A stretch of DNA of 64,000 nucleotides from Candidatus Saccharimonadia bacterium (GTDB lineage: Bacteria > Patescibacteriota > Saccharimonadia > Saccharimonadales > JALRHH01): assembly GCA_023253175.1 (NCBI GenBank), contig JALRHH010000002.1:192199-256198 (forward strand). The letters run 5' to 3'. The position numbers and the translations under genes were made by a program. Positions within the stretch are counted from its first letter, which is position 1, and each line of letters opens with the position of its first letter. The notes under the pieces are model-generated. The model worked only from the letters and a program-made list of their open reading frames with translations, did not search any database and was not told where the DNA came from. Positions 5,630 through 52,450 of this stretch are shown here, piece after piece.

Positions 5630-5793
5630 TCTTCTTTAACAGTATAGATTACTAGTTACGCTATCAAGGACAAACGCTTGAGCTGAGCATTGTCTGATAA
5701 AATCATTTATAAAAATCTCATCAGTTAAGAACAGTAGTTATAACTTCATTAATCTGTTAATCTATTGGATAGGAAATAAAACATGGGAGTACT

Positions 5794-11932: not shown

Positions 11933-11941
11933 GTTAAACTG

Positions 11942-24710: not shown

Positions 24711-24769
24711 TTCATCCTTTCGTTAATATTCTCATAGTTACTTAGTTCATCATGTTAGATAACTAAGTG

Positions 24770-25905: not shown

Positions 25906-26106
25906 ATGACTCAGCGCAAAACCCGAATTAATCTATTAGACATACTGGTTGTACTAGCGATACTGAGTATCGTATCGCTAGTTTTTTTCAGAGGCGCATT
26001 TGTACTTATTGGCGGAATTACAGGAATCTTATTCCTGATATACCTAGTATTTGTCTGGGATGACATTGTCGTGTGGGTATCCACAATCGGCAGCAAGAAG
26101 CGCTAG
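25906..26106 (+). CDS. Small 2-TM membrane protein (66 aa)
   Basis: ORF with two hydrophobic helices. No homology is recognisable. Confidence 0.3.
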   Translation: MTQRKTRINLLDILVVLAILSIVSLVFFRGAFVLIGGITGILFLIYLVFVWDDIVVWVSTIGSKKR

Positions 26107-29368: not shown

Positions 29369-29821
29369 CTAAGCCGTCTTGAATACGACGTGGCGGTCGC
29401 GGCCTTCGCCTTCTGATTCTGTGGTCAGACCGGCATCAGCACCAACCTGGTGCACTACCCTGCGGTCGGCTGCGTTCATTGGACGTAGGTGCATTGGTTC
29501 ACCAGATTCTTGAACCTGTTTAACCCACGCTTCTGCCTGTTCCGCCAAACGGTCTGCGCGCTGTTTCTTGTATTCTGCAACGTCTACGTTTACGCGCGTA
29601 ACTTCGTAGCCGTTATTTTTTAGCGCATTACTAACCATGTACTGCAGTGATCGAACGGTATCGCCGTGCTGGCCGATCAAGAAGCCGTTGAGATGCGTTG
29701 ATGGAACCTGGAGTTCGATAACCTGGCCATCTTCACTCGTAGCGTAGATGTCGGTATTGAGGCCAAAAAACGACAGAATATCCTCAAGATATTTCTTGGC
29801 GTATTGAATTGATTCTTCCAT
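29369..29821 (-). CDS. jag: RNA-binding protein Jag/KhpB (KH + R3H domains)
   Basis: 150 aa. It has LIGQHGDTVRSLQY (KH-like) and a C-terminal RRVVHQVGADAGLTTESEGEGRDRHVV (R3H). Its position is conserved downstream of yidC. Confidence 0.8.
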   Translation of the reverse strand: MEESIQYAKKYLEDILSFFGLNTDIYATSEDGQVIELQVPSTHLNGFLIGQHGDTVRSLQYMVSNALKNNGYEVTRVNVDVAEYKKQRADRLAEQAEAWVKQVQESGEPMHLRPMNAADRRVVHQVGADAGLTTESEGEGRDRHVVFKTA

Positions 29822-30753
29822 TACTTCCTCCGTTTATTAGCTTTTGCGTGGGAGGATTTTGTCTTCTTATTCTTTGACCCTTGGGTGCGAACAACTTCGC
29901 CCTCTATGATGTCTTTTTTAGATGGCTTTTCGTCAGCAATGGCTTCCATTTCTTCTTCGTCTTGCTTCAGTACACGACTCTGCTGGGTTATAGCAACAAG
30001 ACCGCTCACGAACCAGTACAGGCTCAGTGCGGACGCAAGTCCTACGGTAAAGAACAAGATCATTGCTGGGATCAGGAAGCGAGTACCACGCATAACTGCG
30101 GCGCTGACTTCTTGCTGGTCAGCTTCTTTGCCCTCTGCGGCGTCTTTCAGAATTTGCTTGAGTGAACGGCTGTCTTTTGCCTTTGGCATTAGCTGCGTAC
30201 TCTGTTTGAACTGCACAAATGCACTACCGAGTACCAACAAGAACGCTGGCCAGTAGAAGCCCTGGCTACTAACAGCGGCACGGGTCAGGTCAATAACACC
30301 AAGGAATGTCTCGTCAAATGAGGCAACCTTTGATGCAAGATCTTTGACCCAATCAATATTACGAATTGGTTCGTAGGCAAAGTTAACGATCGCACTCGGG
30401 TCGTTGACCATCTTGCGAAGTGCAAAATACAGGCCAAGCAGCACGATGAACTGGATGATAATGGTGCCAAGTGAACCAAAAGGACTGATGCCGCGCTCTT
30501 TGTAGAGCTCCATGAGCATCAGTGATTCTTTTTGGCGGTCGCCAGCGGCTTCTTTCTTGATGCGCTTGATCTGTGGCTGCATTTTGCGCATCGCTGATGC
30601 GTGGTGCAGCTGCTTTTTAACCAGCGGCCACATCGCAAAGCGGACAAGTACCGTAAAGACAATGATCGCGATACCAAAGTTGTGCCCTGGAATAAGTGCG
30701 GTAATAAAGACAAGTAGATTAAAGATCGGTTGTACGATCAGATTATCGAACAT
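29821..30753 (-). CDS. yidC: Membrane protein insertase YidC (short, monoderm type)
   Basis: 310 aa. It has IAIIVFTVLVRFAMWPL...KMQPQIKRIKKE...LYKERGISPFGS and a Lys-rich C-terminal tail. It sits in the rnpA-yidC-jag context. Confidence 0.85.
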   Translation of the reverse strand: MFDNLIVQPIFNLLVFITALIPGHNFGIAIIVFTVLVRFAMWPLVKKQLHHASAMRKMQPQIKRIKKEAAGDRQKESLMLMELYKERGISPFGSLGTIIIQFIVLLGLYFALRKMVNDPSAIVNFAYEPIRNIDWVKDLASKVASFDETFLGVIDLTRAAVSSQGFYWPAFLLVLGSAFVQFKQSTQLMPKAKDSRSLKQILKDAAEGKEADQQEVSAAVMRGTRFLIPAMILFFTVGLASALSLYWFVSGLVAITQQSRVLKQDEEEMEAIADEKPSKKDIIEGEVVRTQGSKNKKTKSSHAKANKRRK

Positions 30754-31772: not shown

Positions 31773-33170
31773 ATGCAGGATAACCTGTGGCAAACGGTAC
31801 TAGGCGAAATCGAGCTAACTGTTTCACGTGGCGCCTACGTTACCTGGTTCAAGAACACTCGACTCCTCCGTCACAAAGACAATATTATTGTGATTGGCGT
31901 CCCAAATGTCTTCATCAAGCAGCAAATGGAACGCAAATACAATCCGATGATTATTGAAATTATCGAGAAGAACGGTGTTAAGCCAGAACGCATTGAATAC
32001 AAGATCCACTCTGGTATCACAATCCCCAAGAAAGCCGATGAAGAGACACTTATACTAAACGCTGCGACGACCGAACGACTTTCGTCAAATGTACAGTCAG
32101 CCACAACCCAGAACCAATCACGCAGTAGCAGCAGCTCACTCACCCACTCCTACCGACTTGGCTTAAATGAAAAATACACCTTTGATAACTTCATTGTTGG
32201 GTCCGGCAACGAGCTTGCCTACGCAGCATGTCAGGCAATTGCAGCCAATCCTGGCACGAAATATAACCCGCTCTTTCTATATGGCGGCGTAGGACTGGGC
32301 AAGACTCACCTTATTCAGGCAGTCGGCAACGCCGTTATTGCAAACAACCCCGATGCGAACATCGTCTATATATCTATTGAACAGTTCGTGCAAGAATTCT
32401 TAGATGCTATTAAGTTCAAAAAGAACACTGACTTTGCAAGTTACTATCGAAACGCCGACGTCCTGATTATCGACGATATCCAGTTCATCGCCGGCAAGGA
32501 AAAAACTCAGGAAGAGTTCTTCCATACATTCAACGCACTGCACCAAGCGAATAAGCAAATCATCATCAGTAGTGATAAGCCGCCAAAAGATATTCCAACA
32601 CTTGAAGAGCGACTTCGCAGCCGCTTCACCTGGGGAATGAGCATTGATATGCAGATTCCAGATTTTGAAACACGCTGCGTAATTATCAAAACAAAGGCAG
32701 AGGCCCATGGCGTTGACCTTGATCAGCCTGTCGTGGAATACCTCGCAAACCTAATTCAATCAAACATTCGTGAACTGGAAGGCGCCCTAAATCAATTACT
32801 CGCATTCTGTGAAATGCGCGGCCTCAGCCCTGACATTACAATGGCAACCAACCTACTCGGCGCTGCAAAAACTAGACCAAAGCACATTAGCGCGAAACAA
32901 ATCATTGAACGCTGCGCGAAACATTTCCAAATTGCAGTTGAAGATATCACTGGTCCAAAGCGGGACAAAGATATTGTGGTTCCCCGCCAAGTTGCAATGT
33001 ATATGCTCAGGAGCGAACTACATCTCAGCTTCCCGAAGATTGCACGTGAACTTGGACGTAAAGACCATACAACCGCAATCCATTCAGTTGAAAAGATTGA
33101 AAAAGAAGTCAGCTATGACGCGGACATTAAAGCTGCGGTTGCAGAAATCAAGGAGCGTCTCTATGCGTAG
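31773..33170 (+). CDS. dnaA: Chromosomal replication initiator protein DnaA
   Basis: 465 aa. It has Walker A GGVGLGKTHL, box VII, and the C-terminal DNA-binding motif KDHTTAIHSVEKI. A GGAGGGAGAGGG SD lies upstream. Confidence 0.95.
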   Translation: MQDNLWQTVLGEIELTVSRGAYVTWFKNTRLLRHKDNIIVIGVPNVFIKQQMERKYNPMIIEIIEKNGVKPERIEYKIHSGITIPKKADEETLILNAATTERLSSNVQSATTQNQSRSSSSSLTHSYRLGLNEKYTFDNFIVGSGNELAYAACQAIAANPGTKYNPLFLYGGVGLGKTHLIQAVGNAVIANNPDANIVYISIEQFVQEFLDAIKFKKNTDFASYYRNADVLIIDDIQFIAGKEKTQEEFFHTFNALHQANKQIIISSDKPPKDIPTLEERLRSRFTWGMSIDMQIPDFETRCVIIKTKAEAHGVDLDQPVVEYLANLIQSNIRELEGALNQLLAFCEMRGLSPDITMATNLLGAAKTRPKHISAKQIIERCAKHFQIAVEDITGPKRDKDIVVPRQVAMYMLRSELHLSFPKIARELGRKDHTTAIHSVEKIEKEVSYDADIKAAVAEIKERLYA

Positions 33171-33433
33171 TCTATGGATAACATGTGGAAAGCATGCGCA
33201 TAACGCCGGGAAAGCTTGTGGGGAGAATCTGGGACTTTTCCGCAGCCAAAATCTATCCCAAATGTATACATGGATAACCACAGGGTTTTTCCGCGGATTG
33301 TACACATTTTGTGTGCAGAAATGCCCAGCTATTGTGGGTAAATTTACCTCTGTTAATTCCGGCTTTTACACAGTTTACACAGGGCTTATTACAACTACTA
33401 CTAATTAAATATATAGATATATAGGATTATTAT
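33171..33433. promoter_or_regulatory. dnaA-dnaN intergenic DnaA-box cluster plus AT-rich unwinding element (oriC part 2)
   Basis: Boxes with 1-2 mismatches to TTATCCACA on either strand: TATGGATAA 33173-33181, TGTGGAAAG 33184-33192, TGTGGGGAG 33217-33225, TTTTCCGCA 33236-33244, ATAACCACA 33274-33282, TGTGGGTAA 33333-33341, TTTTACACA 33364-33372. An AT-rich tract lies at 33391-33433 (ctaattaaatatatagatatataggattattat). Confidence 0.65.
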
Positions 33434-34525
33434 ATGAAGCTCCAAGTCACACAGGAAAACCTAAGCAAAGCATTAAGCTCAGTAGCACGAGTTGCTAATA
33501 GTCGAGGAACATTACCTATTCTTTCTAATGTATTACTTAAGACAGTAGATGGAAGACTCAGTATCGCAGCAACCAATCTAGATATCGCAATCACTCACTA
33601 CATTGGTTCAAAGGTTTCAGAAGAAGGATCAATCACGGTCCCTGCCCGTTTGATGCAGGATTTTGTTGGAAGTCTTCCTGGTGGAGTTATTGAACTAAAA
33701 CTTGATGATTACAAGCTTCATATAAATGCAGATAAGTATAATTCAACGATTAACGGCATTTCAGCAGAAGACTACCCTGTCATGCCTGCAATCGCTGACG
33801 GAACAAGCTGGAAGGTGCCTGGGAAGCTCCTGAAGCAGTCTTTGCAGCAAGTTGTAGTAGCTGCATCAAGTGACGAGGCTCGGCCTGTCCTGACGGGCGT
33901 ATATTGGCACACGCATGAAGGCAAGCTTTACATGGTTGCTACTGATAGTTACCGACTGGCTGAAAAATCACTGATTAATGTTGATCAAGCGGTTGATCTG
34001 CTGATTCCAGCAAGCGCGCTCCAGGATCTGCTTCGTATCATTGGTGATTACGATGAGGACGTCATTGTGACTCATGATGATCAACAGGTACTCTTTACGG
34101 TTGGTGATGTTGAGCTTGTGACTCGGTTGATTGAGGGTAAATACCCCGACTATCGAAAGCTTATCCCCCGCTCTTTTGCGAGTGACGCGTCACTAAAGCG
34201 CAGTGAGCTGGTGAATATTACAAAAGTTTCTAGTTTATTTGCCCGCGAAAGTGCTGGTAGTGTGACACTCGATCTTGATGCCGAGGCGCAGCAAGTAAGT
34301 ATCCGTTCTATCGCATCACAGATTGGTGAAAACACCGCAAGTGCGAGCGCGTCAATCACAAATGGCGGTGCTATTACACTTAATTCGCGCTATATTTTGG
34401 ACGCGCTGCAAGCACTTGGCGGCGAGGATGTTCAGGTAGCGTTTAATGGGAAGCTTGAGCCCTGTATTCTGACTGATCCAAAAGCCAAAGATTACCTTCA
34501 TGTAATCATGCCTCTGAAGTCATAG
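33434..34525 (+). CDS. dnaN: DNA polymerase III beta sliding clamp
   Basis: 363 aa. It has MKLQVTQENLSKALSSVARVANSRGTLPILSNVLL...ATDSYRLAE...MPLKS. Confidence 0.95.
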   Translation: MKLQVTQENLSKALSSVARVANSRGTLPILSNVLLKTVDGRLSIAATNLDIAITHYIGSKVSEEGSITVPARLMQDFVGSLPGGVIELKLDDYKLHINADKYNSTINGISAEDYPVMPAIADGTSWKVPGKLLKQSLQQVVVAASSDEARPVLTGVYWHTHEGKLYMVATDSYRLAEKSLINVDQAVDLLIPASALQDLLRIIGDYDEDVIVTHDDQQVLFTVGDVELVTRLIEGKYPDYRKLIPRSFASDASLKRSELVNITKVSSLFARESAGSVTLDLDAEAQQVSIRSIASQIGENTASASASITNGGAITLNSRYILDALQALGGEDVQVAFNGKLEPCILTDPKAKDYLHVIMPLKS

Positions 34526-34545
34526 TCGACTATAATAACCTCCAG

Positions 34546-35604
34546 ATGATTACAGATATTCGGTTGCAGCACTTCAGGTCCTACCAGGACAGTTCCTTCG
34601 AGATCGATCCAGGAGTAAATATTATTGTCGGTCCAAATGCGAGTGGTAAGACTAATTTACTGGAATCGGTACTTGTGAGCTGCCTCGGTAGCTCGTACAG
34701 GGTTAAGGATGCTGATCTCATTGAATTTGAGCAGCCATGGGCACGTATCGATGTCGGGAGTCCTGACGGGCAACGCACTGTGAAGCTGATAGGAAGCCCT
34801 GCTGGCACGGTTAAGAAAGAATACGTAATTGCCGATCAAAAACTCGCTCGCTTGTCGCTACAAAAGCAAATACCCGTTGTGTTATTTGAGCCTAACCATT
34901 TACAGCTACTTTCAAGTTCCCCTGACCTACGCCGCGATTACTTGGATGGGATTTTGGAACAGTATGTGCCTGGGTATGCCACGGTTCGCAGGCAGTACAA
35001 ACGGGCGTTGTCCCAGAGGAACCGATTATTAAAGCTTGGCCAGGAACAAGCCGGTTCGCAGTTGTTCGCATGGAATATACGACTCAGTCAGCTCGGCGGT
35101 GAACTTGCCCGTAATCGTATGGAATTGGTGGCTCGTATTTCAAATGACATAGAGCCGCTCTATCAGGATTTATCGAGTAGTGATTCAAGAGTGTCGGTTT
35201 CGTATGTGAGCGGCTGCCAGACGGATCAATACGGCTCTGACATGCTACATAAATTAGAGCAAAGCACTGCCAAAGATTTTGAGCGTGGCTTTACGGCATA
35301 TGGTCCTCACCGCGACGATATGCAGATCACATTAAAGAATAAGATGCTACAAGAAGCTGCATCGCGAGGCGAGACCCGCACGATGCTACTCGCACTTAAA
35401 ATTATTGAGATGCGCATCATTGAAGAAACCCGCGGGAAAAAGCCAATACTACTACTTGATGATGTGTTTAGCGAGCTCGACGGTGCACGCCGTAAATCAC
35501 TCACTGAAGTACTGAAAGACCACCAAACATTTATAACGACCACTGACGCCGATGTGGTTGTCGGCTATTTCCTAGATAAAAGCCACGTTATTTTAACAGG
35601 CTAA
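34546..35604 (+). CDS. recF: DNA replication and repair protein RecF
   Basis: 352 aa. It has Walker A GPNASGKTNLLE, the signature region ASRGETRT, and LLLDDVFSELD. Confidence 0.9.
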   Translation: MITDIRLQHFRSYQDSSFEIDPGVNIIVGPNASGKTNLLESVLVSCLGSSYRVKDADLIEFEQPWARIDVGSPDGQRTVKLIGSPAGTVKKEYVIADQKLARLSLQKQIPVVLFEPNHLQLLSSSPDLRRDYLDGILEQYVPGYATVRRQYKRALSQRNRLLKLGQEQAGSQLFAWNIRLSQLGGELARNRMELVARISNDIEPLYQDLSSSDSRVSVSYVSGCQTDQYGSDMLHKLEQSTAKDFERGFTAYGPHRDDMQITLKNKMLQEAASRGETRTMLLALKIIEMRIIEETRGKKPILLLDDVFSELDGARRKSLTEVLKDHQTFITTTDADVVVGYFLDKSHVILTG

Positions 35605-36272
35605 TAAATACCTGGCTCGGTAACCTCATACTGAATATTATAGTCATCTGGTCTAAAACCGATTGATGCTATATAGTCTTTGACTTGTGTTTTGTACTGC
35701 TCTATGGCGCCTTCTCTATCAATTCTGATATCCGCGGCGGTAAGGATCAGCTCGGCGTGTATGGTAAGGCTGTCATTTTCGTATAAAGCCTCTAGTTTAT
35801 AATTAAGGCCATCATATGGAAGGTGTGTAAGAATTGGGTCCGCCTTTGAGCCGTTTGAACTATCTTGAGCTTTAAGTATTGCTTCCTTTTGACTCTTCGG
35901 TAGTTTCTCAAACGGAATTTGCTTTGCTGTAAATCGAACAGTCTTGTTAACTAATTCTTCTCCCTTTTTCGAATGAATCTTAGAAATTTCAATCGTGTAT
36001 TCTTGCCGAGCATCCATTGGTCCAAGTCCGATGCGCAGCGTCTTTTCATTTACTACATCATAGCCTGTTATGGGCGCTTCGACGACGTTTACTTCGATAT
36101 TGTCTTCATCAAGTGCTTTGTTGAAGTTAATATCAATAAAAGGAGATATATTAGATACTTGTCTGGTCCCTGGGTTTGTGCCCGTAATGTGGAATACGAA
36201 GAACTGATAGTACAAAAGTCCAATAAAAGGAATTATAAGAACACCTATAACGATTATTAAAGCTCGTTTCAT
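35601..36272 (-). CDS. Membrane-anchored hypothetical protein with Ig-like (SbsA_Ig-like) domain; last gene of the T4SS-like operon
   Basis: 223 aa with N-terminal TM ALIIVIGVLIIPFIGLLYYQFFVF. Its start overlaps the upstream stop (TAATG at 36270-36274). Its stop overlaps the recF stop convergently. Confidence 0.5.
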   Translation of the reverse strand: MKRALIIVIGVLIIPFIGLLYYQFFVFHITGTNPGTRQVSNISPFIDINFNKALDEDNIEVNVVEAPITGYDVVNEKTLRIGLGPMDARQEYTIEISKIHSKKGEELVNKTVRFTAKQIPFEKLPKSQKEAILKAQDSSNGSKADPILTHLPYDGLNYKLEALYENDSLTIHAELILTAADIRIDREGAIEQYKTQVKDYIASIGFRPDDYNIQYEVTEPGIY

Positions 36273-37624
36273 TATTCAGTTCCTTTCGGGGATACGTAAC
36301 CAACTATATCGCTCGTAGCAAAGCCAGTGATAGTGTACTCAGTGACCTTACTTGATGTAAAGCCACCACCACCCTGATTACCACCTAGAACGGTCATTTT
36401 GTTTCCGTTAACGGCAACAACAAGCATGACGTGTGAAATGTAGTTTTTAGGGTCAGTATTCTTTTGTATCACGATGTCACCGGGCTGTGGTGTGTAATCG
36501 CCAGATTTATTAAAGGTAAATGTCTCACCCTTTTCGCCAATCGACCGTACTTCGTCAACACTGGCTACATTGCCCTGGTTACCTTTCTTTAGCGGATATC
36601 CGGCCTGGTTGTATATCCAGCTTACGAAGTCTGCGCACCAGTTTTCATTCCTGCCCTGACTATACTTGTGAAAATCTGTGCCTGGCTTAAGGGAACCGTT
36701 CCCCCAAAGCTCCAGTTCTTGCTTTGCGAGTGCTACAACTTTTTGCCTAACTGGTCCACCGATGCCGTTACATGCACCGCCAAGATCTGCGCCAGTAAGG
36801 GCTGCGTATTGTACGAAACCACCATATCCTTCATTTGCGGGGTATGATATCCCACCCCCATCTGTTTTGATTTGACCCCATCCGCTCGGGTTTTTGCCTG
36901 GATCGCGTTTTGCATCGGCTTTATTCATGACATATGGCGAGCCCTCGTAGCCCTCGTTTGCCTTGTAGCCGAGTGACTGAGCCTGTTTTTCGTACACACT
37001 CGCCCGCCCGTTATAACTAAACAACGTATCTTTTATGACATTCGGCTGAGAACTAGAGGTGATGGTCTTGTTTCCCTCGTAGTTTGCCTTTGCTTTACCG
37101 CTGATAAATTCGGCAACGAACATTGTCTGCCGCTCAAACTCTTTTTCGCTGACTGGTCCAGTTGGATATGGTCCGCCACGCTTGTCATAGAACTGGTAAA
37201 TGCCTTGACCATTGGATGGATTATTCCTGCCAAGTCCTGTCTCACGTATATGAATTACGGCAATTATCTGCCATGGAATATCGTGTTTTTGTGCTGCTTT
37301 CTCGTATACTGGCTGATTCTTTGCGATTTCGCTTAGCTGAGTTTTTGTCAGGATTTCGCGGCCAGCATAGTCTTTGTTTTGGCTTGTAGTGCCGACGATA
37401 TTAACACTACACTGGCTTGAGTTGTTCTTGTCGAGTGTGTCACATGGTCCGTAATAACCAGCATCCAAATTTATCATTCTCTCGTCTAGATTGTCGGTGT
37501 CTTCGCAGTCGATTGTCTCTGCGGCGTATGTTTTCTGTAGTGGCGAAATTGCAAAGAGTAGACTTAGGATTAAGGTAAGAACGATAGTATTTGATAGTAG
37601 CCGACGTGCACGTCTTAATTGCAT
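36272..37624 (-). CDS. Secreted bifunctional cell-wall hydrolase: SLT/lysozyme-like domain + C-terminal CHAP amidase/peptidase (VirB1/PrgK/CwlT analogue)
   Basis: 450 aa with a signal-like N-terminus. The N-terminal-half motifs IHIRETG ... GQGIYQF ... FSYNGRA parallel SLT motifs ES / GLMQ / AYNAG. The C-terminal half has NENWCADFVSWIYNQAGYP (Cys nucleophile) and ISHVMLVV (His), as in CHAP domains. Confidence 0.75.
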   Translation of the reverse strand: MQLRRARRLLSNTIVLTLILSLLFAISPLQKTYAAETIDCEDTDNLDERMINLDAGYYGPCDTLDKNNSSQCSVNIVGTTSQNKDYAGREILTKTQLSEIAKNQPVYEKAAQKHDIPWQIIAVIHIRETGLGRNNPSNGQGIYQFYDKRGGPYPTGPVSEKEFERQTMFVAEFISGKAKANYEGNKTITSSSQPNVIKDTLFSYNGRASVYEKQAQSLGYKANEGYEGSPYVMNKADAKRDPGKNPSGWGQIKTDGGGISYPANEGYGGFVQYAALTGADLGGACNGIGGPVRQKVVALAKQELELWGNGSLKPGTDFHKYSQGRNENWCADFVSWIYNQAGYPLKKGNQGNVASVDEVRSIGEKGETFTFNKSGDYTPQPGDIVIQKNTDPKNYISHVMLVVAVNGNKMTVLGGNQGGGGFTSSKVTEYTITGFATSDIVGYVSPKGTE

Positions 37625-40600
37625 GGCGATCTCGATTTCTTGCTGAGTTCAAGTAAGTTAATGCTCTTATTATCGCCCATTGCTCTGAAAAGATCTTGTG
37701 GACAAACATGCCTGCTATTGAAGGTCAAATCAATATGAAGGTGTGGTCCAGTGACTTTACAGCCAACTTGGCCAAGATCGAGTATTCTCTGGCCAGCATT
37801 TACTTTGTCGCCCTTTTTAAACCGTGGGTTTGTGCCATGACCGTAGGCAATGAGAACGCTACCACCTGCGATATTCGATCGTATAATCATTCCCTCTCCC
37901 GCGCCGCAAAGATTTGTTCTTTCAACCGTACCATCAAGCATCGAATACACGGGTGCCTTTAATGGTGGAGAGCTAATATCGACAGCGCCGCCACGGAGAT
38001 ATGGAGATGTAAAAGTCCCGCTTCTCATGCCATGTGCGTCGAGGAAATCACTCTTGTTGCTGTCCCAATACTTTTTATCTACTGGCCAAGCAAATCCGCT
38101 TGAACTTATCTCTGATCCTCCACTGGCACCGTCACCGCCTGCGGCTGCATCGCCTCCACCAGGGACAGTAATAGTTGTGTAGACTGGAGTCTTGGGGTGG
38201 TCTGACCCACTGACTGACTTACCGCCGTAAATAGCCTTGAATTTATCAATAACAACTTCTGGTGTGACATAGAGATAGTCCACACCACCCATGCCATTCT
38301 TTTGGCGACAATCTTTTTCTGGTGCCTCGGTTATCTTCATGAGTTTTTTAGCTGTCACCTTGCAGAAAAAGAGATTCGATTGTTTACCTTCATAGGTTAT
38401 ATTTCCTTTTAGTCGAACACCAGTACCCTCATTAAAGTCACCAGTAAATATAATTGGGACTCCCGGATTCTCTTGTCTGAGTTGTTCAATTTTTGCTACG
38501 TATAGGTCTGCAGACTGCATTCTCCGAAGACTACTCTGATCCATCGTGCCCGCACCACCATCGTCATTGTTTCCAAAGCCATTTGCAGCGCCGTGGGTGT
38601 TCATGAAGATAACTTGCTGTCCTGCTTTTGTCTTCAGGAATACGATTGGCGTTTGGGCGTGTGCATGCTCGATCTTTCCCCCACCTTCTGGACCACAGTC
38701 TGTGTCGAGGTTATTGTATCTTGGGTAGTCAAGAAAACCACTCTCTGCTCTTATGAAGTCAAACTTATTTCTATTCCAGAAAACCGCCTGTGGCACGGCA
38801 CATGGGTTGTCTGCTTTCGTTGGCCAAGAGTCGTAATCCGGTAAGTTCTGCTTAAAGTACCGGAAGTTACTGTCACCACCACGGAGCTCCTGGAACCCGA
38901 CAATATCAAATCCTACATTGCCTTTTGCACCTTTTGCTGTCTTGATGAGATTCACAGCTTTTGACCACTGTGTTGGTCCCCAACCGTTCTTACTTGGGAT
39001 ATTGTAAGTCGCTACCGTAAAGGTGCCACCAACGCCGCTGGAAGTAACGCCGCCACCTGATGATGCATCTTCGATGGCGTTTTCGCCTGCGAGTTCTGGC
39101 GCGTACTTGCCCGCCGTAGCACCCTGAGCCATGGAGTCGAATATGACGCAGTTGTATACGGTTTCAATTGTATCTCCTGCGTCAGGATTGTCCGCGTAAA
39201 GTTTTCCATAGAAGTCCGAGCTACTGGTCATGAGTTCCCAAGTTAACTCAGAAGAATCAATGAGACCGAGTTCGTCGGCATTAGTCATTTTGGGTAAGGA
39301 GTCCTTCTCTATGCTATTCAAGGGGTTGCTATCTGTACATTCGGCTGGTATATCATACATTTTTATGCCACCGAAATTAGCCGCCTCTCTACCAGTTGTT
39401 GTAGCTGCCTTTACCTTTCGGTTTGTCGCAATGCTAAAGGGTGTCTTCCAGACTGAGGAGAATGTGCGCATAAACATGTTAGAACGTGATTGTGTCGCGT
39501 TGGCTGTTATTGCCGAGGCAAGAACAGAATCGGTATTATCAAGACTTAAGTATCTATCAAAAGTTGACATATTCTGTTCTTTGTCTTGCATGTACTGCGC
39601 GATACGAACCTGATTTTCTCGCATTGATGTCTCGGTCGCGAGTGCGCCGCCAGCTAATCGTGATGAGGCTTCGGCTGCTCCTGCCCCACCTTGTATGACC
39701 TGATTCAAGATAACGCCGCCCGGAGAGCTTTCGTCGATTGCGGGAACTGCTCCTGCAAATCGAGCAACCTTCCCAACTGCCCAACCAACAATATCTTCAA
39801 TGTTGTCACTCAGCCCCAGACCCTTTAGTGCTCCATTCACGATTGGTCCGGTAACAGCACCAAGAACAGAATTAAATTTATCCAGCAGCCACCCAGCTCC
39901 TGTGTTGTCAAGGGCTGAGCCAAGTGGCCCCAATACGTAGCCCACTGAGTTCTGCCAAGCACTCTCAAAGGTTTTCGCATTCGTACTTGCTCCGACTTTT
40001 TGTGAGTCACAAAGATAGTGATATTCTTTCTCTGCCTCCGGCTTGTTCTCTTTTAGTTTGAGCATCTCCTGATGCTTGTCGCTACAGTAATCTTCTTTAT
40101 CTTTTGCTGGTGTAAAGCTTTCTGCACTAACAGCTCCTGAATTACTGGAGTTAACGATGACTTTATTCCAGCCCTCACTGGTGCCAGCGTAACTGAATAT
40201 TTGCATGAATTCATTATATTCTTCGGCGCTGAGCTCACCAGTATGATACTGGCTTGCAGGAATAGCAGCGAAGCTCGTGAATGCTGCTATGGCTTGCGCA
40301 TTTCGCATAGAGTAAACACCCTTGGACGCGGCACCGTTCTTTACTTGTTTATCGATATTTGTGAGTGTGTTTATAGTGTCTAGCGCACCAGCAGCACTCG
40401 CAAATTTAGTAACAACGTTATTGAGGATTTTAGACGTAAATCCTTTGCTTTTGCTGTCCCCCTCATCACTATCGCTATCCCCTGATATGTCGTCAGCGGT
40501 TCCTTCTAGGTCGCTATGGTTTGACGGATCATTTGGGTCTGTCGATGAGGAGCACTCGGAGCTTGGTAGAATGGCAAAGAGACATTGAATAAACTTACCA

Positions 40601-41685
40601 CTCTTTGTGCTTTCAGGCATTGATTTCTTTATTGCTTTTGATAACGCGGATACTTTTGCATCGTGCCATTTATCCCGGGTTTTTTCGAAGAAGCGCCAAT
40701 CGCGTATTCCGGTCATATTCTGGATAGCCTTGCGCGTATAATACCGCTTTGCGAATTGCCATGGTTTTGTGTTTTCATTCACAATCTTTTTAATGGCTTT
40801 GCGGCCCTCTTTGTCATTATTCATTACCTGGACATCTACAAAGTCACCGAGTCTGCCATTAAATTTATTAATGTCGAGATTATTATTATCCACCGCATCA
40901 CCTATAGCAGCTTGTTCTGCTGGTGTTAATTCAAACTTTATTTGCTCGTCATTAATAGATACGATGGCGGGTCTGAACTTTATTTGGTTCCCGTCGCGGT
41001 ACGCAGCGCTGGCAAATTTAATGCCATGCTTTTCGAATACTTCTTGTTCAAACTTACTCGCGCGAAGTGTTCTGTACCAGTCTGTTGTGGGGCTATTTGT
41101 ATCGACTCTGTTTGATCTGAAGATCATATTATCTCTGTCTTCAGGTGCAAGACCCGAGTCATCAACCTCCATAAGTCTCAGTGATATATATGCATTGACC
41201 CACTTACTAGAGCGACCTTCCATGTCAACCTGGAATCTTACAAACGTCTTTGCCTCGATATTTTTGAGGAACATGTCGATGTTTAGGGAGCTAAACATGC
41301 CAAAGAGCGCAATTATACTGCCGATCATTCCTCCCCCGGCAATTGCTAAAATGGTTTTTCGCTTCCTTGACGCGTTAGAAAATAAATTTCTTATGTTGCC
41401 TCTTTTTTTGTCCGCGCCGCTGTAAAAACCATCTAGATCAGATTTCTCTTGCTTGTCTGCTGCAGTGGCACCGTTTCCCTGTATTCCTGAAGATTCGACC
41501 TTTTCGATACTTGCACCATCTTCAGGTCTGTAAAAACCTGCATTTTCAGCAATATCATCGGCAGCACCACTATATGCAGCGTCTTCCATCCTGTCCTGTT
41601 CTTCGGGGCTTATGCCAAGCTCCTGAAGAAAATCTGGCTCCATCGAATGTTTTGCAGTTTCGTCTTCGTGTTTTGTAGGTGACAC
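37615..41685 (-). CDS. Giant single-pass membrane protein: acidic N-terminal tail, TM, approx. 750-aa unknown ectodomain, EEP (DNase I-like endo/exonuclease/phosphatase) domain, C-terminal M23/LytM peptidase domain
   Basis: 1356 aa. GTG start at 41685 with AGAGGA upstream. TM at aa 110-135 (TILAIAGGGMIGSIIALFGMF). EEP motifs appear in order at aa approx. 887-1172 (nt 38170-39027): TYNI, GFQE, MNTH, GDFN, SDH. M23 lies at aa approx. 1197-1325 (nt 37711-38097): GDKVNAGQRILDLGQVG..TGPHLHIDL. Confidence 0.75.
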   Translation of the reverse strand: MSPTKHEDETAKHSMEPDFLQELGISPEEQDRMEDAAYSGAADDIAENAGFYRPEDGASIEKVESSGIQGNGATAADKQEKSDLDGFYSGADKKRGNIRNLFSNASRKRKTILAIAGGGMIGSIIALFGMFSSLNIDMFLKNIEAKTFVRFQVDMEGRSSKWVNAYISLRLMEVDDSGLAPEDRDNMIFRSNRVDTNSPTTDWYRTLRASKFEQEVFEKHGIKFASAAYRDGNQIKFRPAIVSINDEQIKFELTPAEQAAIGDAVDNNNLDINKFNGRLGDFVDVQVMNNDKEGRKAIKKIVNENTKPWQFAKRYYTRKAIQNMTGIRDWRFFEKTRDKWHDAKVSALSKAIKKSMPESTKSGKFIQCLFAILPSSECSSSTDPNDPSNHSDLEGTADDISGDSDSDEGDSKSKGFTSKILNNVVTKFASAAGALDTINTLTNIDKQVKNGAASKGVYSMRNAQAIAAFTSFAAIPASQYHTGELSAEEYNEFMQIFSYAGTSEGWNKVIVNSSNSGAVSAESFTPAKDKEDYCSDKHQEMLKLKENKPEAEKEYHYLCDSQKVGASTNAKTFESAWQNSVGYVLGPLGSALDNTGAGWLLDKFNSVLGAVTGPIVNGALKGLGLSDNIEDIVGWAVGKVARFAGAVPAIDESSPGGVILNQVIQGGAGAAEASSRLAGGALATETSMRENQVRIAQYMQDKEQNMSTFDRYLSLDNTDSVLASAITANATQSRSNMFMRTFSSVWKTPFSIATNRKVKAATTTGREAANFGGIKMYDIPAECTDSNPLNSIEKDSLPKMTNADELGLIDSSELTWELMTSSSDFYGKLYADNPDAGDTIETVYNCVIFDSMAQGATAGKYAPELAGENAIEDASSGGGVTSSGVGGTFTVATYNIPSKNGWGPTQWSKAVNLIKTAKGAKGNVGFDIVGFQELRGGDSNFRYFKQNLPDYDSWPTKADNPCAVPQAVFWNRNKFDFIRAESGFLDYPRYNNLDTDCGPEGGGKIEHAHAQTPIVFLKTKAGQQVIFMNTHGAANGFGNNDDGGAGTMDQSSLRRMQSADLYVAKIEQLRQENPGVPIIFTGDFNEGTGVRLKGNITYEGKQSNLFFCKVTAKKLMKITEAPEKDCRQKNGMGGVDYLYVTPEVVIDKFKAIYGGKSVSGSDHPKTPVYTTITVPGGGDAAAGGDGASGGSEISSSGFAWPVDKKYWDSNKSDFLDAHGMRSGTFTSPYLRGGAVDISSPPLKAPVYSMLDGTVERTNLCGAGEGMIIRSNIAGGSVLIAYGHGTNPRFKKGDKVNAGQRILDLGQVGCKVTGPHLHIDLTFNSRHVCPQDLFRAMGDNKSINLLELSKKSRSPCN

Positions 41686-41758: not shown

Positions 41759-43666
41759 TTAAATTCCTGGCATGAGCCTGTTATTAAGGTCAATTGTCCC
41801 GCCATTACCAGTAAAGCTTCCTTGTTGTTCGATCGCTCTCACTTGGTCTGGATTAGTGGTGATAAGATTTGTCTCTGTTTCACTGGCTGCGATTTGGATA
41901 TGTACATGGTTTTGTCCGGCAAAGAAGAGTCCCTGTCCAACGGGGAACTGGCTCAATCGCTTCTTTTCCTCACTCGTTAGCTTAAATACATCGGACAACA
42001 CATCAACGGCCGCTGGTGATTGCTTAAGGAGTATCTGCATGGAGGCATTGTTTACGATCGCCCTTCCCATACGTGATCCCATAAAGTCTTCCACATCTTG
42101 GGTGATGGTTGTGATGCCAAGATTATACTTACGGGCACGCTTTGCGAGACTAAACAAGAAGTTGGCCGAGTCCTCGTATTTCATGAGCTGCCACGCCTCA
42201 TCAACAATCATGATGCGGCGCTTTTGATCGCTCTTGGTCTTGTTCCAAATAAAGTTCAGTACGATGTACATCGCGACAGGACGAAGTTCGTCCTCGAGGT
42301 CACGAATATTGAATACCACCATAGGGTTGTTAATATCGATGTTACTCTGTTGGCTGAAAATACCTGCGAATGTACCAGTGGTATATTTGCGAAGTCGCTG
42401 CGCTAGCTGAGGACCCGTGCCGCCCATGTGCAGGAGTGTGTCGTACAGGTCGTTAATGGTTGGTGGTGGGCTGCCGTGTGTCAGTGGGTCATTGGTAATG
42501 CCGGCCTTTGCATATGTTTCAATCAGGGCTGCATCAAGGTCTGCTTCCTCGCTTGGGGCGAGTGCAGGCATGCTGGGGCCACCATTGTTGGCCATAGCCG
42601 CCTGGGCACCACCCATCATAAGACGTAGTAGTCCATGCAGTGTTAACAGGTTGCTCGTAAGTGCATTATCGGCCTCTTCGGTATCAACAACCTTTGGTAG
42701 GTCAAACGGATTGATACGGGTTGGAGACGTTAGACTCAGGCGAACGTATGCACCACCAACTGCCTCACACATGCGTTGATATTCGTTCTCTGGGTCAATA
42801 ATAAAGATCTCGGTACCCATCATCATGCTTCGGAGTGCTTCGAGCTTTACAGTAAATGATTTACCAGCACCAGATTTTGCGAATACGACTGAGTTACTGT
42901 TTTCTAGACTAAACCGGTCAAAAATAACCAGTCCAGAGTTATGCATATTGATGCCGTATAAGATGCCGTCGTCTTGTGTCAGGTCAGCGCTCGTGAATGG
43001 GAAGCTCGTACTAAGCGCACCGGTGTTGAAGTTACGCCTAATTTGTAATTGGTCAGTAAGCTGCGGAACTGTGCTATTAAGCGCCTGCTCTTGTTGGCTC
43101 GTTGCTGGCTTAGAGTATACAAGCTGCTGTCCAAGCATTGACTCGACCTTGTGTGCGACATATTCGAGTTCGTCCATACTGCCGCCGTAAATGGTGAAAT
43201 AGAGCCCAAAACGGAAGAAGCGCTCTTCTCCAACCTGAAGCTTATCTCGCATCTCTTCGGCGTCCAGGATGGCGGCTTGCTTTGCGGGATCACGAACACG
43301 GCCTTTTTCAGCATCAATTTGTAATCCAGCCTCAAGCTGCGTCACTTTCTTTCGAAGATTTTCAAGAACTACTTGACTCTCCACTGGATAGATGAACATC
43401 GACATATCCATGACCTCATCAAGGTTAACCATGCTACTGAGCCAGCCGGTGTAGATCTGACGAGGGTATCCGTAAACATAGTAGGTCCGCGCAAAGCGAG
43501 TCCCTAGTTGGAAATGAGTTGAAAAGAATTCAAGTGAACTTGGTGCGATAAAATCACGGAGCGCAGTAATGCCCTTTTGAAAAGCTGCCTGTACTTCTTG
43601 CTGTTCGCGTAGTTGCTGCTGCTGCGCTAGGGCAACCGGGTCAAGTTGCTGCTTCTTTTTAGCCAT
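41759..43666 (-). CDS. virB4: VirB4-family type IV secretion ATPase (C-terminal two-thirds of Gram-positive VirB4/TrsE-type proteins)
   Basis: 635 aa. It has Walker A FAKSGAGKSF, IIDPENEYQRM, Walker B RRIMIVDEAWQLM, and RKYNLGITTITQDVEDF. Confidence 0.9.
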   Translation of the reverse strand: MAKKKQQLDPVALAQQQQLREQQEVQAAFQKGITALRDFIAPSSLEFFSTHFQLGTRFARTYYVYGYPRQIYTGWLSSMVNLDEVMDMSMFIYPVESQVVLENLRKKVTQLEAGLQIDAEKGRVRDPAKQAAILDAEEMRDKLQVGEERFFRFGLYFTIYGGSMDELEYVAHKVESMLGQQLVYSKPATSQQEQALNSTVPQLTDQLQIRRNFNTGALSTSFPFTSADLTQDDGILYGINMHNSGLVIFDRFSLENSNSVVFAKSGAGKSFTVKLEALRSMMMGTEIFIIDPENEYQRMCEAVGGAYVRLSLTSPTRINPFDLPKVVDTEEADNALTSNLLTLHGLLRLMMGGAQAAMANNGGPSMPALAPSEEADLDAALIETYAKAGITNDPLTHGSPPPTINDLYDTLLHMGGTGPQLAQRLRKYTTGTFAGIFSQQSNIDINNPMVVFNIRDLEDELRPVAMYIVLNFIWNKTKSDQKRRIMIVDEAWQLMKYEDSANFLFSLAKRARKYNLGITTITQDVEDFMGSRMGRAIVNNASMQILLKQSPAAVDVLSDVFKLTSEEKKRLSQFPVGQGLFFAGQNHVHIQIAASETETNLITTNPDQVRAIEQQGSFTGNGGTIDLNNRLMPGI

Positions 43667-44598
43667 TACTGAATCTCCCTGTCTAAATTAGGCTGGGGCG
43701 CCATACCTTGGCCTTTGGTAATAACTGGAGCTGTCAAATCATCAAAGTTCTTGAGCTGCTGACGGGTAGCAGTGTCCGGGTTGTAGGTGTCATAGTAAAG
43801 CTCGATAAGTTCCTGTGTATCAAGCGGCAGGCCCTGGATACCACATTGCTGTAATCCCCCAAGCACGGCCTGCACACGGTTGCGGAGCTCGTCCTTAGCC
43901 TTTTCCAAATCAGGTTCGTTGATAACAACATGCTGTTCAGTCTTACTAAACATACTCGTAAGCCCGGTGAAGAAGTTTTTGCTCTCTTTGCCGAGCTGCT
44001 TCATATCTGGCAGCGGGTTAAATGGAATCACGATATAGAACTTTTTGTCCATGAGATTGGTGTGCTGTGCAATATCACTAATGTAATTGATATAATCTTC
44101 CATCAGCAGCGCAAGGAGCATATTGTCATGCTCTGAGCGAATTTTATCTAATCTGTGTATGTACGGTGATATATCAATTTTCTGCGAGCGAATAAAAATC
44201 TGAATATCAAAATACAATGAGTTTAGGAAGCCTTGGTAGCCGTACTCTACACCGTCTCGTTCTTGTGGACTCATAAGGTCAAAGTTAATAGATTTCGTCA
44301 TCACGACACAGCGAAATGTGCCGTCATTCATGATCACGATACCATCACGGATTTCTGCAATCTGTAGTGTGTTTTGTGTGCTGTTTGGGTTGCTCTTTGT
44401 CTTTGGCGCACCGCCGGGCTGTGCCGGACCAGAAACGGTCGGTGCTACCATGCCTACTGGCTGGTGCGGCATACTTGGTTGTGTGTAAGGCTGCGGTTGA
44501 GCCTGAGTGTATGGATTATAGCCCGGATTTTGTTGCACGGGATTTGGCACGCCAGCTCGTTGCGGCGGTGTTTGTGGATATTGTGAATTAGGATCCAT
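43666..44598 (-). CDS. PQ-rich protein whose C-terminal approx. 230 aa resemble the N-terminal domain of Gram-positive VirB4-type ATPases (putative split VirB4 N-domain)
   Basis: 310 aa, no TM. IAEIRDGIVIMNDGTFRCVVMTKSINFDLMSPQERDGVEYGYQGFLNSL...IQIFIRSQKIDISPYI follows the pattern I recall at the N-terminus of approx. 800-aa firmicute VirB4 homologues. Its stop overlaps the virB4 start (TAATG at 43664-43668). Confidence 0.5.
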   Translation of the reverse strand: MDPNSQYPQTPPQRAGVPNPVQQNPGYNPYTQAQPQPYTQPSMPHQPVGMVAPTVSGPAQPGGAPKTKSNPNSTQNTLQIAEIRDGIVIMNDGTFRCVVMTKSINFDLMSPQERDGVEYGYQGFLNSLYFDIQIFIRSQKIDISPYIHRLDKIRSEHDNMLLALLMEDYINYISDIAQHTNLMDKKFYIVIPFNPLPDMKQLGKESKNFFTGLTSMFSKTEQHVVINEPDLEKAKDELRNRVQAVLGGLQQCGIQGLPLDTQELIELYYDTYNPDTATRQQLKNFDDLTAPVITKGQGMAPQPNLDREIQ

Positions 44599-50262: not shown

Positions 50263-50319
50263 ATTAGAATATTCGAATCATACCATTTATTGTACTAATG
50301 CAACAGTGCAAATACCTGG

Positions 50320-50348
50320 TTGCCAAAAGTTATATTTCACAATATAGT
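50320..50348 (+). promoter_or_regulatory. Promoter of the pilin-like array (TTGCCA - 17 nt - TATAGT), -10 ends 9 nt before the ATG at 50358
   Basis: Read directly. It is divergent from the VirB6-like operon start. Confidence 0.45.
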
Positions 50349-50357
50349 AAGCATCAA

Positions 50358-51005
50358 ATGAAGCAAATACGAAAAACAAAGCTCTTGCTTGTAATTATAG
50401 GAATCATTGTGTCGTTCGTCGGACCCGTGGTCCTTACTAATTCATCAACGGTCTTTGCGGCCGGGTGTATTACTAATCCGAGCTCTGATCCGTTAGTAAC
50501 CGATCAACAAAACTGTATAAAGAAGTACGTTAAAGATTGTAAAGACAAAAAGTTCGAAGCAACTTTCTGTGATAACCTGACAGTCAAGCAGATAAACAAT
50601 TGTGCGAATGACAAAGGATTTACACTAAAGAAAGCTTGTGTAGAAAAGTTGATAGCGGATGCCTCAAAAGACGAAAGCGCTGAGGGCACCTCGTCTGGCA
50701 GTACTAGTGATATCGGGAATGACTACGACACCGACGATTGTGCAGTCTCTCCCGAGGGTCTTGAAAGCAGTAACTGTGAGGTAATTAAGATGATTGTCCT
50801 CATTACTAATATTATGTCTGGTCTAGCGGCTACGGTGATCGTGGCGATGATTGTATTGGGAGGTATTCAATATTCAACGGCAGGTGCAGAAGCGGCTAAA
50901 GTCCAGGCGGCTAAACAAAAGATTACCAATGCCCTTCTTGCTCTTATGTTATTAATATTTGGATTTAGTATTATTCAATGGCTTGTTCCGGGAGGATTGA
51001 TTTAA
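50358..51005 (+). CDS. T4SS pilin-like (VirB2/TrbC-like) protein 1, with long Cys-rich N-terminal ectodomain
   Basis: I prefer the ATG at 50358 (MKQIRKTKLLLVIIGIIVSFVG...). The C-terminal module is SGLAATVIVAMIVLGGIQYSTAGAEAAKVQAAKQKITNALLALMLLIFGF (TM - G.QY..S.G - AK - TM). Confidence 0.6.
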   Translation: MKQIRKTKLLLVIIGIIVSFVGPVVLTNSSTVFAAGCITNPSSDPLVTDQQNCIKKYVKDCKDKKFEATFCDNLTVKQINNCANDKGFTLKKACVEKLIADASKDESAEGTSSGSTSDIGNDYDTDDCAVSPEGLESSNCEVIKMIVLITNIMSGLAATVIVAMIVLGGIQYSTAGAEAAKVQAAKQKITNALLALMLLIFGFSIIQWLVPGGLI

Positions 51006-51333: not shown

Positions 51334-51611
51334 TAGACAAACTTTTGTCATTTGCTGTTGTTGATGAATTTGAAGTACCAAAGGGAGAATTTGGTGATTC
51401 TGAACTCGGAACGATTCTAAAGATAGTATTTGGGATTATGGGGGCTGTGGCGGTGGTTGTGCTACTCCTGGCCTCGTTAAAGTACGTCATATCCAGAGGT
51501 GATCCCGGTGAAGTTGCCAAGGCAAAGAACGCTATTATATATGCAGCAATTGGTCTTGTTGTAACCGCGTTTGCATTTAGTATTGTAGGATTTGTGGTAA
51601 ACAGAGTATGA
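51330..51611 (+). CDS. T4SS pilin-like protein 3
   Basis: 93 aa with the module AVAVVVLLLASLKYVISRGDPGEVAKAKNAIIYAAIGLVVTAFA. There is an ATGA start/stop overlap with protein 2. Confidence 0.6.
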   Translation: MIDKLLSFAVVDEFEVPKGEFGDSELGTILKIVFGIMGAVAVVVLLLASLKYVISRGDPGEVAKAKNAIIYAAIGLVVTAFAFSIVGFVVNRV

Positions 51612-52003
51612 TCGGAAAAATGAAATTATTTATTGTTGGACTACTGGCTACTTTTAGTCTCTCGCTTGCGTTTGCCCCAAGTGCATCGGCAGCCTTTAGT
51701 TTGTTTGGCGATGCTTGTAGGGGTGTTTCGGACTCTGCTGTTTGCAAAGATAGTAAGAACTCAAGCAATCCAATCTATGGACCGAATGGTATCGTAGGAA
51801 CAGTCGTTAATATTCTTTCCATTATTGTTGGTGTGGCGGCGGTAATCGTCATCATTATTGCTGGCATACAGTACATGCTGTCTACGGGTGATCCTAGCAA
51901 GGTTAATAATGCCAAGAACGCTATTTTGTATGCCGTTGTGGGACTGATTATTGCAGTGCTGTCTCAAGTGATTGTCAAGTTTATAATTTCGAGGATAGGT
52001 TAG
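51608..52003 (+). CDS. T4SS pilin-like protein 4
   Basis: 131 aa with signal peptide ...APSASA and a Cys pair (GDACRGVSDSAVCKD). The module is AAVIVIIIAGIQYMLSTGDPSKVNNAKNAILYAVVGLIIAVLS. There is an ATGA overlap with protein 3. Confidence 0.65.
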   Translation: MIGKMKLFIVGLLATFSLSLAFAPSASAAFSLFGDACRGVSDSAVCKDSKNSSNPIYGPNGIVGTVVNILSIIVGVAAVIVIIIAGIQYMLSTGDPSKVNNAKNAILYAVVGLIIAVLSQVIVKFIISRIG

Positions 52004-52006
52004 AGT

Positions 52007-52450
52007 TTGAAGCGGCTGATCCTTGCATTGTCTATCTTGTTCGTAGGATTTTTCTTAACTTCACCACTGTCTGTATCCGCACAAGCAGATGCTTCAAGCC
52101 AAGTATCGTGCGAAACTTTAAGGAACGTAAACCCCAACGACATCGGGTGTGCGGGTTCTAATGGTCAAGTCAGCAAGGTAATTAGGTTGGCCCTCCAGAT
52201 ACTAAGTCTTGCAGCTGGCATTATTGCGGTCATCATGGTCATTGTATCCGGGCTTAAGTACGTGACCTCCCAAGGTGATTCTAATGCAATATCCAGCGCC
52301 AAGAATTCATTGATCTACGCAATCGTAGGTATTGTAGTGGTTGTTTTTGCACAGATTCTTGTGCAATTCGTGCTACAGACTTCCGACAGAGACTACTCCC
52401 CTAATCCAGTTGAAACAGAAGATTCGTCACGCCGCACTGATTCACGGTAG
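52007..52450 (+). CDS. T4SS pilin-like protein 5
   Basis: 147 aa, TTG start, signal peptide ...LSVSAQA, and a Cys pair (CETLRNVNPNDIGC). The module is IIAVIMVIVSGLKYVTSQGDSNAISSAKNSLIYAIVGIVVVVFA. Confidence 0.6.
   Translation: MKRLILALSILFVGFFLTSPLSVSAQADASSQVSCETLRNVNPNDIGCAGSNGQVSKVIRLALQILSLAAGIIAVIMVIVSGLKYVTSQGDSNAISSAKNSLIYAIVGIVVVVFAQILVQFVLQTSDRDYSPNPVETEDSSRRTDSR

Follow-up and report, generated by a model that had tools for sequence, protein, structure and literature searches.

In this study, we show that two adjacent genes of a Candidatus Saccharimonadia bacterium are together homologous and complementary to one fused VirB4, the ATPase of type IV secretion systems (T4SS). The genes lie in a window of 64,000 nucleotides (nt) (assembly GCA_023253175.1, contig JALRHH010000002.1, positions 192,199 to 256,198 of the forward strand; positions below count from its first letter), and we refer to them as open reading frame (ORF) A, which encodes a TrsD-like protein of 310 amino acids (aa), and ORF B, which encodes a short VirB4 of 635 aa. 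We consider it very probable that the chromosomal, origin-proximal T4SS of Saccharibacteria has its VirB4 stably encoded by two such adjacent genes, that the arrangement goes back to a fission in an ancestral MPF-FATA subgroup, and that the protein is rebuilt in trans. The split, the homology to VirB4 and the distribution in Patescibacteria are already published, and our additions are small details: where exactly the break lies, that a membrane anchor was lost, and the inserts found at the junction.

The original prediction, made from the letters of the window alone, described a 310-aa and a 635-aa ORF joined by TAATG, and both the ORFs and the peptides quoted for them were confirmed in the minus-strand sequence. 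The junction reads cagTAATGgct, with the stop codon TAA at 43668..43666, the start codon ATG at 43666..43664, and one base (43666) common to both. Behind a Pro/Gln-rich head, ORF A carries IAEIRDGIVIMNDG...IQIFIRSQKIDISPYI as residues 80-147, and ALRDFIAPSSLEFF... begins at residue 35 of ORF B. The exact sequence of ORF A is absent from the protein database, in which its closest match is 95% identical. A single TAATG overlap is a common operon junction and says little; it is its conservation, described below, that exceeds chance.

ORF B matched the NCBIfam CD1110 family (NF045971) with 349.8 bits (E 3e-104; model positions 176-734 of 752, ORF B residues 24-590) and passes the curated whole-protein cutoff of this model, which is 325 bits. 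The model is not covered in full length by ORF B alone, and its positions 2-118 are matched by residues 75-190 of the separate ORF A (E 3.8e-4). The NCBIfam model TIGR00929 VirB4_CagE was matched by ORF B at positions 229-734 of 792, and Pfam returned P-loop_TraG, AAA_10 and DUF87. Residues 229-603 aligned with the crystallised C-terminal domain of VirB4 from T. pseudethanolicus (PDB 4AG5; phmmer E 1.4e-49), and both nucleotide-binding motifs are intact, Walker A (KSGAGKS) at residues 264-270 (42857..42877) and Walker B (IMIVDE) at residues 485-490 (42197..42214). The stretch upstream of the crystallised region, residues 27-228, contains a weak Pfam CagE_TrbE_VirB match at residues 46-109. By BLASTP, ORF B residues 27-580 aligned to residues 208-762 of a fused VirB4 from E. 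faecalis (E 2e-46). ORF B also has a conserved N-terminus of its own, MAKKxQLDPVA.

The counterpart of the missing region is found in ORF A. Besides CD1110, the NCBIfam models VirB4_plasma (positions 97-250 of 894, E 1e-6), TraC-F-type (positions 116-184 of 800, E 7e-3) and TrsD/TraD (NF041427, positions 13-142 of 201, E 2.4e-5) were matched by ORF A. Pfam gave only a sub-threshold TraC_F_IV match and did not return PF26593 for ORF A itself, and PF26593.2 is the precomputed assignment of 120 of the 120 best homologues (61-95% identical) and of 41 of 42 Pontibacillus-type relatives. A profile of ORF A plus relatives was compared by hhalign with three fused VirB4 proteins from plasmids (E. faecalis pN48037F-3, 799 aa; C. 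acnes, 853 aa; L. paracasei, 818 aa) and matched them with 95.3% probability (E 2e-8), placing ORF A residues 71-276 on fused residues 24-196. For the core of ORF A, an AlphaFold2 model from 51 sequences of two subfamilies reached a pLDDT of 72.3 and a pTM of 0.65; an earlier model from a shallow alignment of Saccharibacteria only had reached a pLDDT of 46, with the Pro/Gln head below 50. When the core model was searched against PDB with Foldseek, the top 14 matches were all chains of TrwK/VirB4 from R388 (probability 0.97-1.00, E 8e-4 to 1e-2, about 190 aligned columns), and the next match had an E-value of 0.23.

The ranges of ORF A and ORF B on the fused protein adjoin without overlap (24-196 and 208-762), and about 60 residues at the junction (ORF A 277-310 plus ORF B 1-26) are without counterpart in fused VirB4. 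The claim that the 310-aa protein is the N-terminal segment of a Gram-positive VirB4 of about 800 aa and the 635-aa protein the rest, in this order, is thus borne out by NCBIfam, hhalign and BLASTP alike, and the comparison of the 310-aa protein with the N-terminal domains of full-length VirB4 gave an alignment in NCBIfam, hhalign and Foldseek. The further description of the two parts as an N-domain and an ATPase proved imprecise, as ORF B keeps the second half of the N-terminal domain (about 27-228) in addition to the ATPase (229-603). The N-terminal domain of R388 TrwK/VirB4 spans residues 15-400 and is wrapped by VirB3 (PMC9259494). Because the break maps to about residue 200, the cut lies inside this domain of about 400 residues and not at the border between N-domain and ATPase.

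The two-gene state is a property of the lineage. ORF A has 6255 database homologues, and each of the best 120 is a stand-alone protein with a length of 250-359 aa; a relative is encoded by at least 584 species-representative genomes, nearly all of which bear the label Candidatus Saccharibacteria or Saccharimonadales. When 1.84 billion cluster representatives were searched with a profile, 3,944 clusters (50% identity) were obtained, the best 150 all with 158-478 aa. Among 26 homologues (69-93% identity), about 130 columns of the core and C-terminal tail are invariant and the stop position is conserved; the tail of about 34 residues, which lies outside the alignment to the fused protein, hardly varies and stops at the same residue. 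For a survey of the junction we fetched 80 related loci from species-level genomes, one of which runs off its contig. Separate ORFs were present in 79 of the 79 informative loci, and none of these carried a fused ORF. The one-base overlap (TAATG, TAGTG or TGATG) occurred in 49 of the 79, most of the other junctions having gaps of -4 to +5 nt, and GGAG or GAGG stood at -20..-7 of the ATPase start codon in 62 of the 80 related loci. ORF B is 83-92% identical to the VirB4 of 79 Saccharibacteria genomes, and from this identity it very likely belongs to the monophyletic Patescibacteria VirB4 clade. One metagenome-assembled genome (MFD05684.bin.2.43; locus L041, about 4771-6776) has a VirB4 gene whose alignment to ORF B in one frame starts only at residue 251, with 67% identity; this copy may be frameshifted or divergent, or the assembly may be in error.

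It has been reported that TrsD is remotely homologous to the N-terminus of VirB4 and that 2,272 homologues occur in 2,221 Patescibacteria assemblies, 1,664 of them adjoining virB4 (Quinonero-Coronel et al., 2025, PMC12102498). According to the same study, TrsD is found elsewhere only in the pGO1 subclass of MPF-FATA and has no assigned function, the copy is essential in S. epibionticum ML1, the VirB4 proteins of Patescibacteria form a clade nested within MPF-FATA, and the T4SS cluster is often near dnaA. The main text of Guglielmini et al. (2014, PMC4027160), which is cited as the source of the homology between TrsD and VirB4, does not mention TrsD. In the transposon sequencing of S. epibionticum ML1 (Wang et al., 2023, PMC10633639 supplement), SEML1_0008 (10434-12272, K12063), the hypothetical SEML1_0009 (12272-13153) and the PrgI gene SEML1_0010 were all essential. 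SEML1_0008 and SEML1_0009 share coordinate 12272, which is the same one-base overlap as in the window.

Plasmids of Pontibacillus, B. thuringiensis, Planococcus (annotated 'TrsD'), Paenibacillus, C. perfringens and C. botulinum carry the same split module, and so do a C. difficile record and an actinomycete, Miltoncostaea. We inspected eight such plasmid loci, seven from Firmicutes and one from Actinomycetota, and all eight consist of a gene for about 275-345 aa, an ATPase of 620-660 aa and then a hydrolase or large protein. Four of the eight have an annotated PrgI gene upstream, and one further locus has an unannotated small gene there. In the fused plasmid loci, VirB4 (about 800 aa) is followed by a cell-wall hydrolase in three of three, two of which have an annotated PrgI upstream. 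In an unrooted neighbor-joining tree of the ATPase part from 12 sequences, split and fused forms were separated in 100 of 100 bootstraps, and the ATPase of the window was placed with the split forms of Pontibacillus and Miltoncostaea. Two of the plasmid copies, those of B. thuringiensis pHT77 (L002, 3656-4693) and of Planococcus (L003, 1181-2215), have an N-terminal extension of about 100 residues that contains hydrophobic segments and looks similar to PrgI/VirB3, and neither has a separate annotated PrgI gene upstream. This suggests that they are VirB3-TrsD fusions and that the VirB3, VirB4-N and VirB4-C modules may have been joined differently between systems.

We propose that the two genes are co-transcribed and linked in translation through the TAATG overlap and the internal Shine-Dalgarno sequence, which would lead to roughly equal synthesis of both products. 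By analogy with the R388 structure, TrsD would then act in trans by binding the N-terminal half-domain that the short VirB4 has kept, and would rebuild a complete N-terminal domain, and the rebuilt domain would, on the same grounds, dock the ATPase hexamer onto PrgI/VirB3 at the membrane. The split most likely arose once, by fission in the ancestor of a monoderm, pGO1-like subgroup of MPF-FATA that also gave rise to the Patescibacteria clade.

The original prediction had left open a very recent frameshift, or an insertion or deletion (indel) from sequencing or assembly, in a single virB4 for about 900 aa, and a one-base overlap of ORFs in different frames is indeed a possible outcome of a single-base indel. 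The probability that we leave to this explanation is negligible. The two-gene state recurs in all 79 informative genomes, which are independent assemblies, in cultured S. epibionticum ML1 and in the eight plasmid loci, with complete plasmids of Firmicutes and Actinomycetota among its carriers; the near-invariant tail of ORF A has a fixed end, ORF B has its own N-terminus and Shine-Dalgarno sequence, and some relatives have an intergenic spacer of 100-480 nt. Natural gene fission, the other half of that prediction, is a fair description, the parts being complementary and the split lineage-wide. It is also very improbable that ORF A is an unrelated accessory protein of the T4SS whose resemblance to VirB4 is convergent or spurious. 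The E-values of single models are modest (1e-6 to 3.8e-4), a profile search of PDB sequences was empty, and Foldseek gave E-values of about 1e-3 and TM-scores of about 0.4. Against this stands the agreement of four independent lines, namely the matches to three VirB4 N-terminal hidden Markov models, the profile-profile match, a fold search that returned VirB4 only, and the exact position of ORF A, which sits between PrgI and the ATPase in place of the part that ORF B lacks; moreover, the aligned ranges complement each other without overlap, and the same homology is stated independently in PMC12102498. Searches of PDB sequences with ORF A (phmmer) and with the TrsD-like profile (hmmsearch) gave chance matches only and reached no Gram-negative VirB4 N-terminal domain; prostatic acid phosphatase and, matched through the Pro-rich head, a dihydrolipoyl succinyltransferase were discarded as such.

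The direction of the change is a matter of its own. If the two-gene state were ancestral, ORF A would be a primordial separate subunit and the full-length VirB4 a product of fusion. The unrooted tree is compatible with a single event and separates split from fused forms without polarity, and the stand-alone family is very large (3,944 clusters) and spans Patescibacteria, Bacillota and Actinomycetota. Fusions do occur in this machinery, as VirB3-VirB4 fusions are mentioned in PMC12102498. We nevertheless judge an origin by fusion to be unlikely, and fission is favored because the Patescibacteria VirB4 clade is nested within MPF-FATA and VirB4 is single-chain in other classes; Gram-negative TrwK (823 aa) has its N-terminal domain in one chain (PMC9259494), and parsimony leads to one fission.

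Apart from the unpolarised tree, several points weigh against a fission rebuilt in trans as we propose it. The binding of TrsD to the short VirB4 is deduced from R388. ORF A scored 24.3 bits with the narrow NF041427 model, far under its cutoff of 200 bits, and is a distant relative of this TrsD/TraD family and not a member. The TM-scores of the core in Foldseek were modest (0.36-0.43 on the query), and since Foldseek gives no TrwK residue range, the placement of ORF A in the first half of the N-terminal domain is one suggested by the sequence profiles. Finally, about a fifth of the related loci have a spacer of 60-490 nt between the two genes, so that tight translational coupling is not obligatory; such relatives show the coupling to be dispensable.

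These spacers are found, for example, in L008 (about 4960-5450), L047 (about 4765-4920) and L014 (about 2047-2150; this junction carries a masked N-run), and also in L005, L021, L032, L034, L053 and L065. Most of those inspected are repeat-rich, with tandem GAAATACGAAACTCGAAGCACGAAATCAGAAAC units, CCTTTAC repeats or palindromic TTACCGATTAGCGATTTGCC units, and the spacers look like small inserted repeat elements. Downstream of the spacer, virB4 has a GGAGG site and an ATG of its own, and the original TAATG is still visible in L008 and L047. An alternative genetic code, considered on account of TGA stops in some relatives, was rejected, given that the downstream ATPase has its own Shine-Dalgarno sequence and ATG after a non-coding spacer.

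The head of ORF A sets the Saccharibacteria proteins apart from their plasmid relatives. No transmembrane (TM)-like segment was found in ORF A by hydropathy, and an N-terminal one is present in 0 of 120 Saccharibacteria-type homologues versus 38 of 42 Pontibacillus-type relatives. The Saccharibacteria-type head is hypervariable, with a median of 70 aa and 41% Pro+Gln (120 homologues). Among the plasmid copies, seven of eight have a hydrophobic N-terminal segment, at the very N-terminus in five and further in for two (pHT77 and Planococcus), and that of Miltoncostaea has none. The loss of the anchor and the variable Pro/Gln head of Saccharibacteria TrsD are a minor point, possibly new. Directly upstream of ORF A, the PrgI-like protein has a long Gln/Pro-rich extension behind its PrgI domain; one TM-like segment was flagged (residues 25-43, hydropathy threshold), and a second hydrophobic stretch is seen by eye. 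With 329 aa, it is about three times the usual size, and SEML1_0010 of S. epibionticum is likewise long (903 nt). One may imagine that the split-off module has a role specific to Saccharibacteria beyond rebuilding VirB4, with a separate TrsD at another stoichiometry or under regulation, and with two low-complexity extensions, the disordered TrsD head and the Gln/Pro-rich PrgI tail of about 240 residues, mediating a new assembly or gating step of an essential, non-conjugative T4SS; we regard this as rather improbable.

The gene order around the split is PrgI/VirB3, TrsD, VirB4 and cell-wall hydrolase. Read from the recF side, the cluster comprises a 223-aa protein, the CHAP protein, the 1356-aa M23 protein, VirB4, TrsD, the PrgI-like protein, two proteins without family match and a protein with six TM-like segments (Table 1). 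By position and topology, the last one is a candidate VirB6-like channel subunit. Genes yidC, jag/khpB, dnaA, dnaN and recF mark the chromosomal replication origin region, which adjoins the T4SS cluster. Among the ORFs scanned in the 19-54 kb part of the window, none had a relaxase or type IV coupling protein domain, and the proteins of 455, 469 and 223 aa had no family match. The 1356-aa protein has one TM-like segment and, at residues 893-1163, an Exo_endo_phos match (E 4.8e-4) that is under the gathering score; a nuclease- or phosphatase-like domain, if true, would deserve attention in a T4SS for which import of host macromolecules has been proposed. Just beyond the origin region are a gene of the GH10 xylanase family (24767-25885, plus strand, E 1.5e-77) and one for a 917-aa protein with cutinase and PKD domains (26103-28856, minus strand), enzymes for polymer degradation that one would not expect in the reduced genome of an epibiont.

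Table 1. Coordinates in the window of the split virB4, its parts and the neighboring genes
Feature	Position	Strand	Basis or remark
ORF A, 310 aa, TrsD-like	44598..43666	minus	ORF list; counterpart of first ~200 residues of full-length VirB4
Variable Pro/Gln-rich low-complexity head of ORF A, residues 1-67	44398..44598	minus	alignment: length-variable, poorly conserved
Conserved core of ORF A, residues 68-310, VirB4 N-terminal-like fold (predicted)	43669..44397	minus	alignment, AlphaFold2, Foldseek
Shine-Dalgarno-like AGGGAG for ORF B	43680..43675	minus	8 nt 5' of ATG, within Arg-Glu codons of ORF A tail
Stop/start overlap TAATG, ORF A/ORF B	43664..43668	minus	sequence read
ORF B, 635 aa, VirB4-family ATPase without first ~200 canonical residues	43666..41759	minus	ORF list and hidden Markov models
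Retained second half of VirB4 N-terminal domain, ORF B residues 27-228	42983..43588	minus	aligns to fused VirB4 208 to ~420
C-terminal ATPase domain, ORF B residues 229-603	41858..42982	minus	phmmer to PDB 4AG5
PrgI/VirB3-like membrane protein, 329 aa	44697..45686	minus	Pfam PrgI, residues 5-91, E 2e-7, 31.9 bits (cutoff 27)
Cell-wall hydrolase, 1356 aa, VirB1 position, directly downstream of ORF B	37615..41685	minus	C-terminal Pfam Peptidase_M23 E 1.3e-10; NCBIfam M23-type
CHAP-domain protein, 450 aa, second putative peptidoglycan hydrolase	36272..37624	minus	Pfam CHAP E 1.4e-11
Polytopic membrane protein, 568 aa	48556..50262	minus	six TM-like segments; no Pfam match
Three VirB2-like pilin genes	50298-51005, 51608-52003, 52007-52450	plus	Pfam T4SS_pilin E 1.1e-4, 8.8e-14, 4.8e-11; TrbC/VirB2 matches
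dnaA-dnaN-recF	31773..35604	plus	Pfam Bac_DnaA E 2.5e-71, DNA_pol3_beta E 5.9e-37, SMC_N/RecF-like
yidC, jag/khpB	29369-30753		Pfam

With regard to annotation, the 310-aa 'hypothetical protein' is better labelled TrsD-like (VirB4 N-terminal module), and the 635-aa protein is to be treated as a complete functional short VirB4 and not as a pseudogene fragment. Saccharibacteria depend on their T4SS for epibiotic growth, which makes each conserved subunit of the system a candidate for mechanistic work. The N-terminal domains of VirB4 connect the protomers of each VirB4 dimer (PMC12857230), and a naturally split N-terminal domain would be a ready-made means to dissect the half that contacts VirB3 from the half for dimerisation.

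The arrangement is closest to the TrsD and VirB4 genes of other Patescibacteria and Saccharibacteria, which have the same order of PrgI, a protein of about 300 aa, a VirB4 of about 612-635 aa and hydrolases, and the same one-base overlap. The Saccharibacteria T4SS also shares the dnaA neighborhood and the VirB2-like pilin cluster, and with homologue identities of 61-95% for ORF A and 83-92% for ORF B the window differs from it in nothing of substance. The TrsD/TraD and TrsE/TraE genes of staphylococcal pGO1/pSK41 are alike in having a small gene, a short ATPase (about 620-670 aa) and then a hydrolase. However, ORF A is only 19-29% identical to the plasmid TrsD-type copies, and the Firmicutes-type copies mostly have an N-terminal hydrophobic segment, whereas those of Saccharibacteria have a soluble Pro/Gln-rich head. 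The full-length VirB4 of the CD1110 family, represented by the 799-aa protein of E. faecalis pN48037F-3, has Walker A and B motifs and is covered by ORF A and ORF B at residues 24-196 and 208-762, but it is one polypeptide instead of two and about 25% identical over the ATPase part. Only R388 TrwK (PDB 7O41-7O43, 8RTB, 8RTD) matches the ORF A core in fold, and the ATPase domain of ORF B matches it weakly by sequence; it is a Gram-negative, single-chain protein of 823 aa, with 9-17% identity in the matched N-terminal part.

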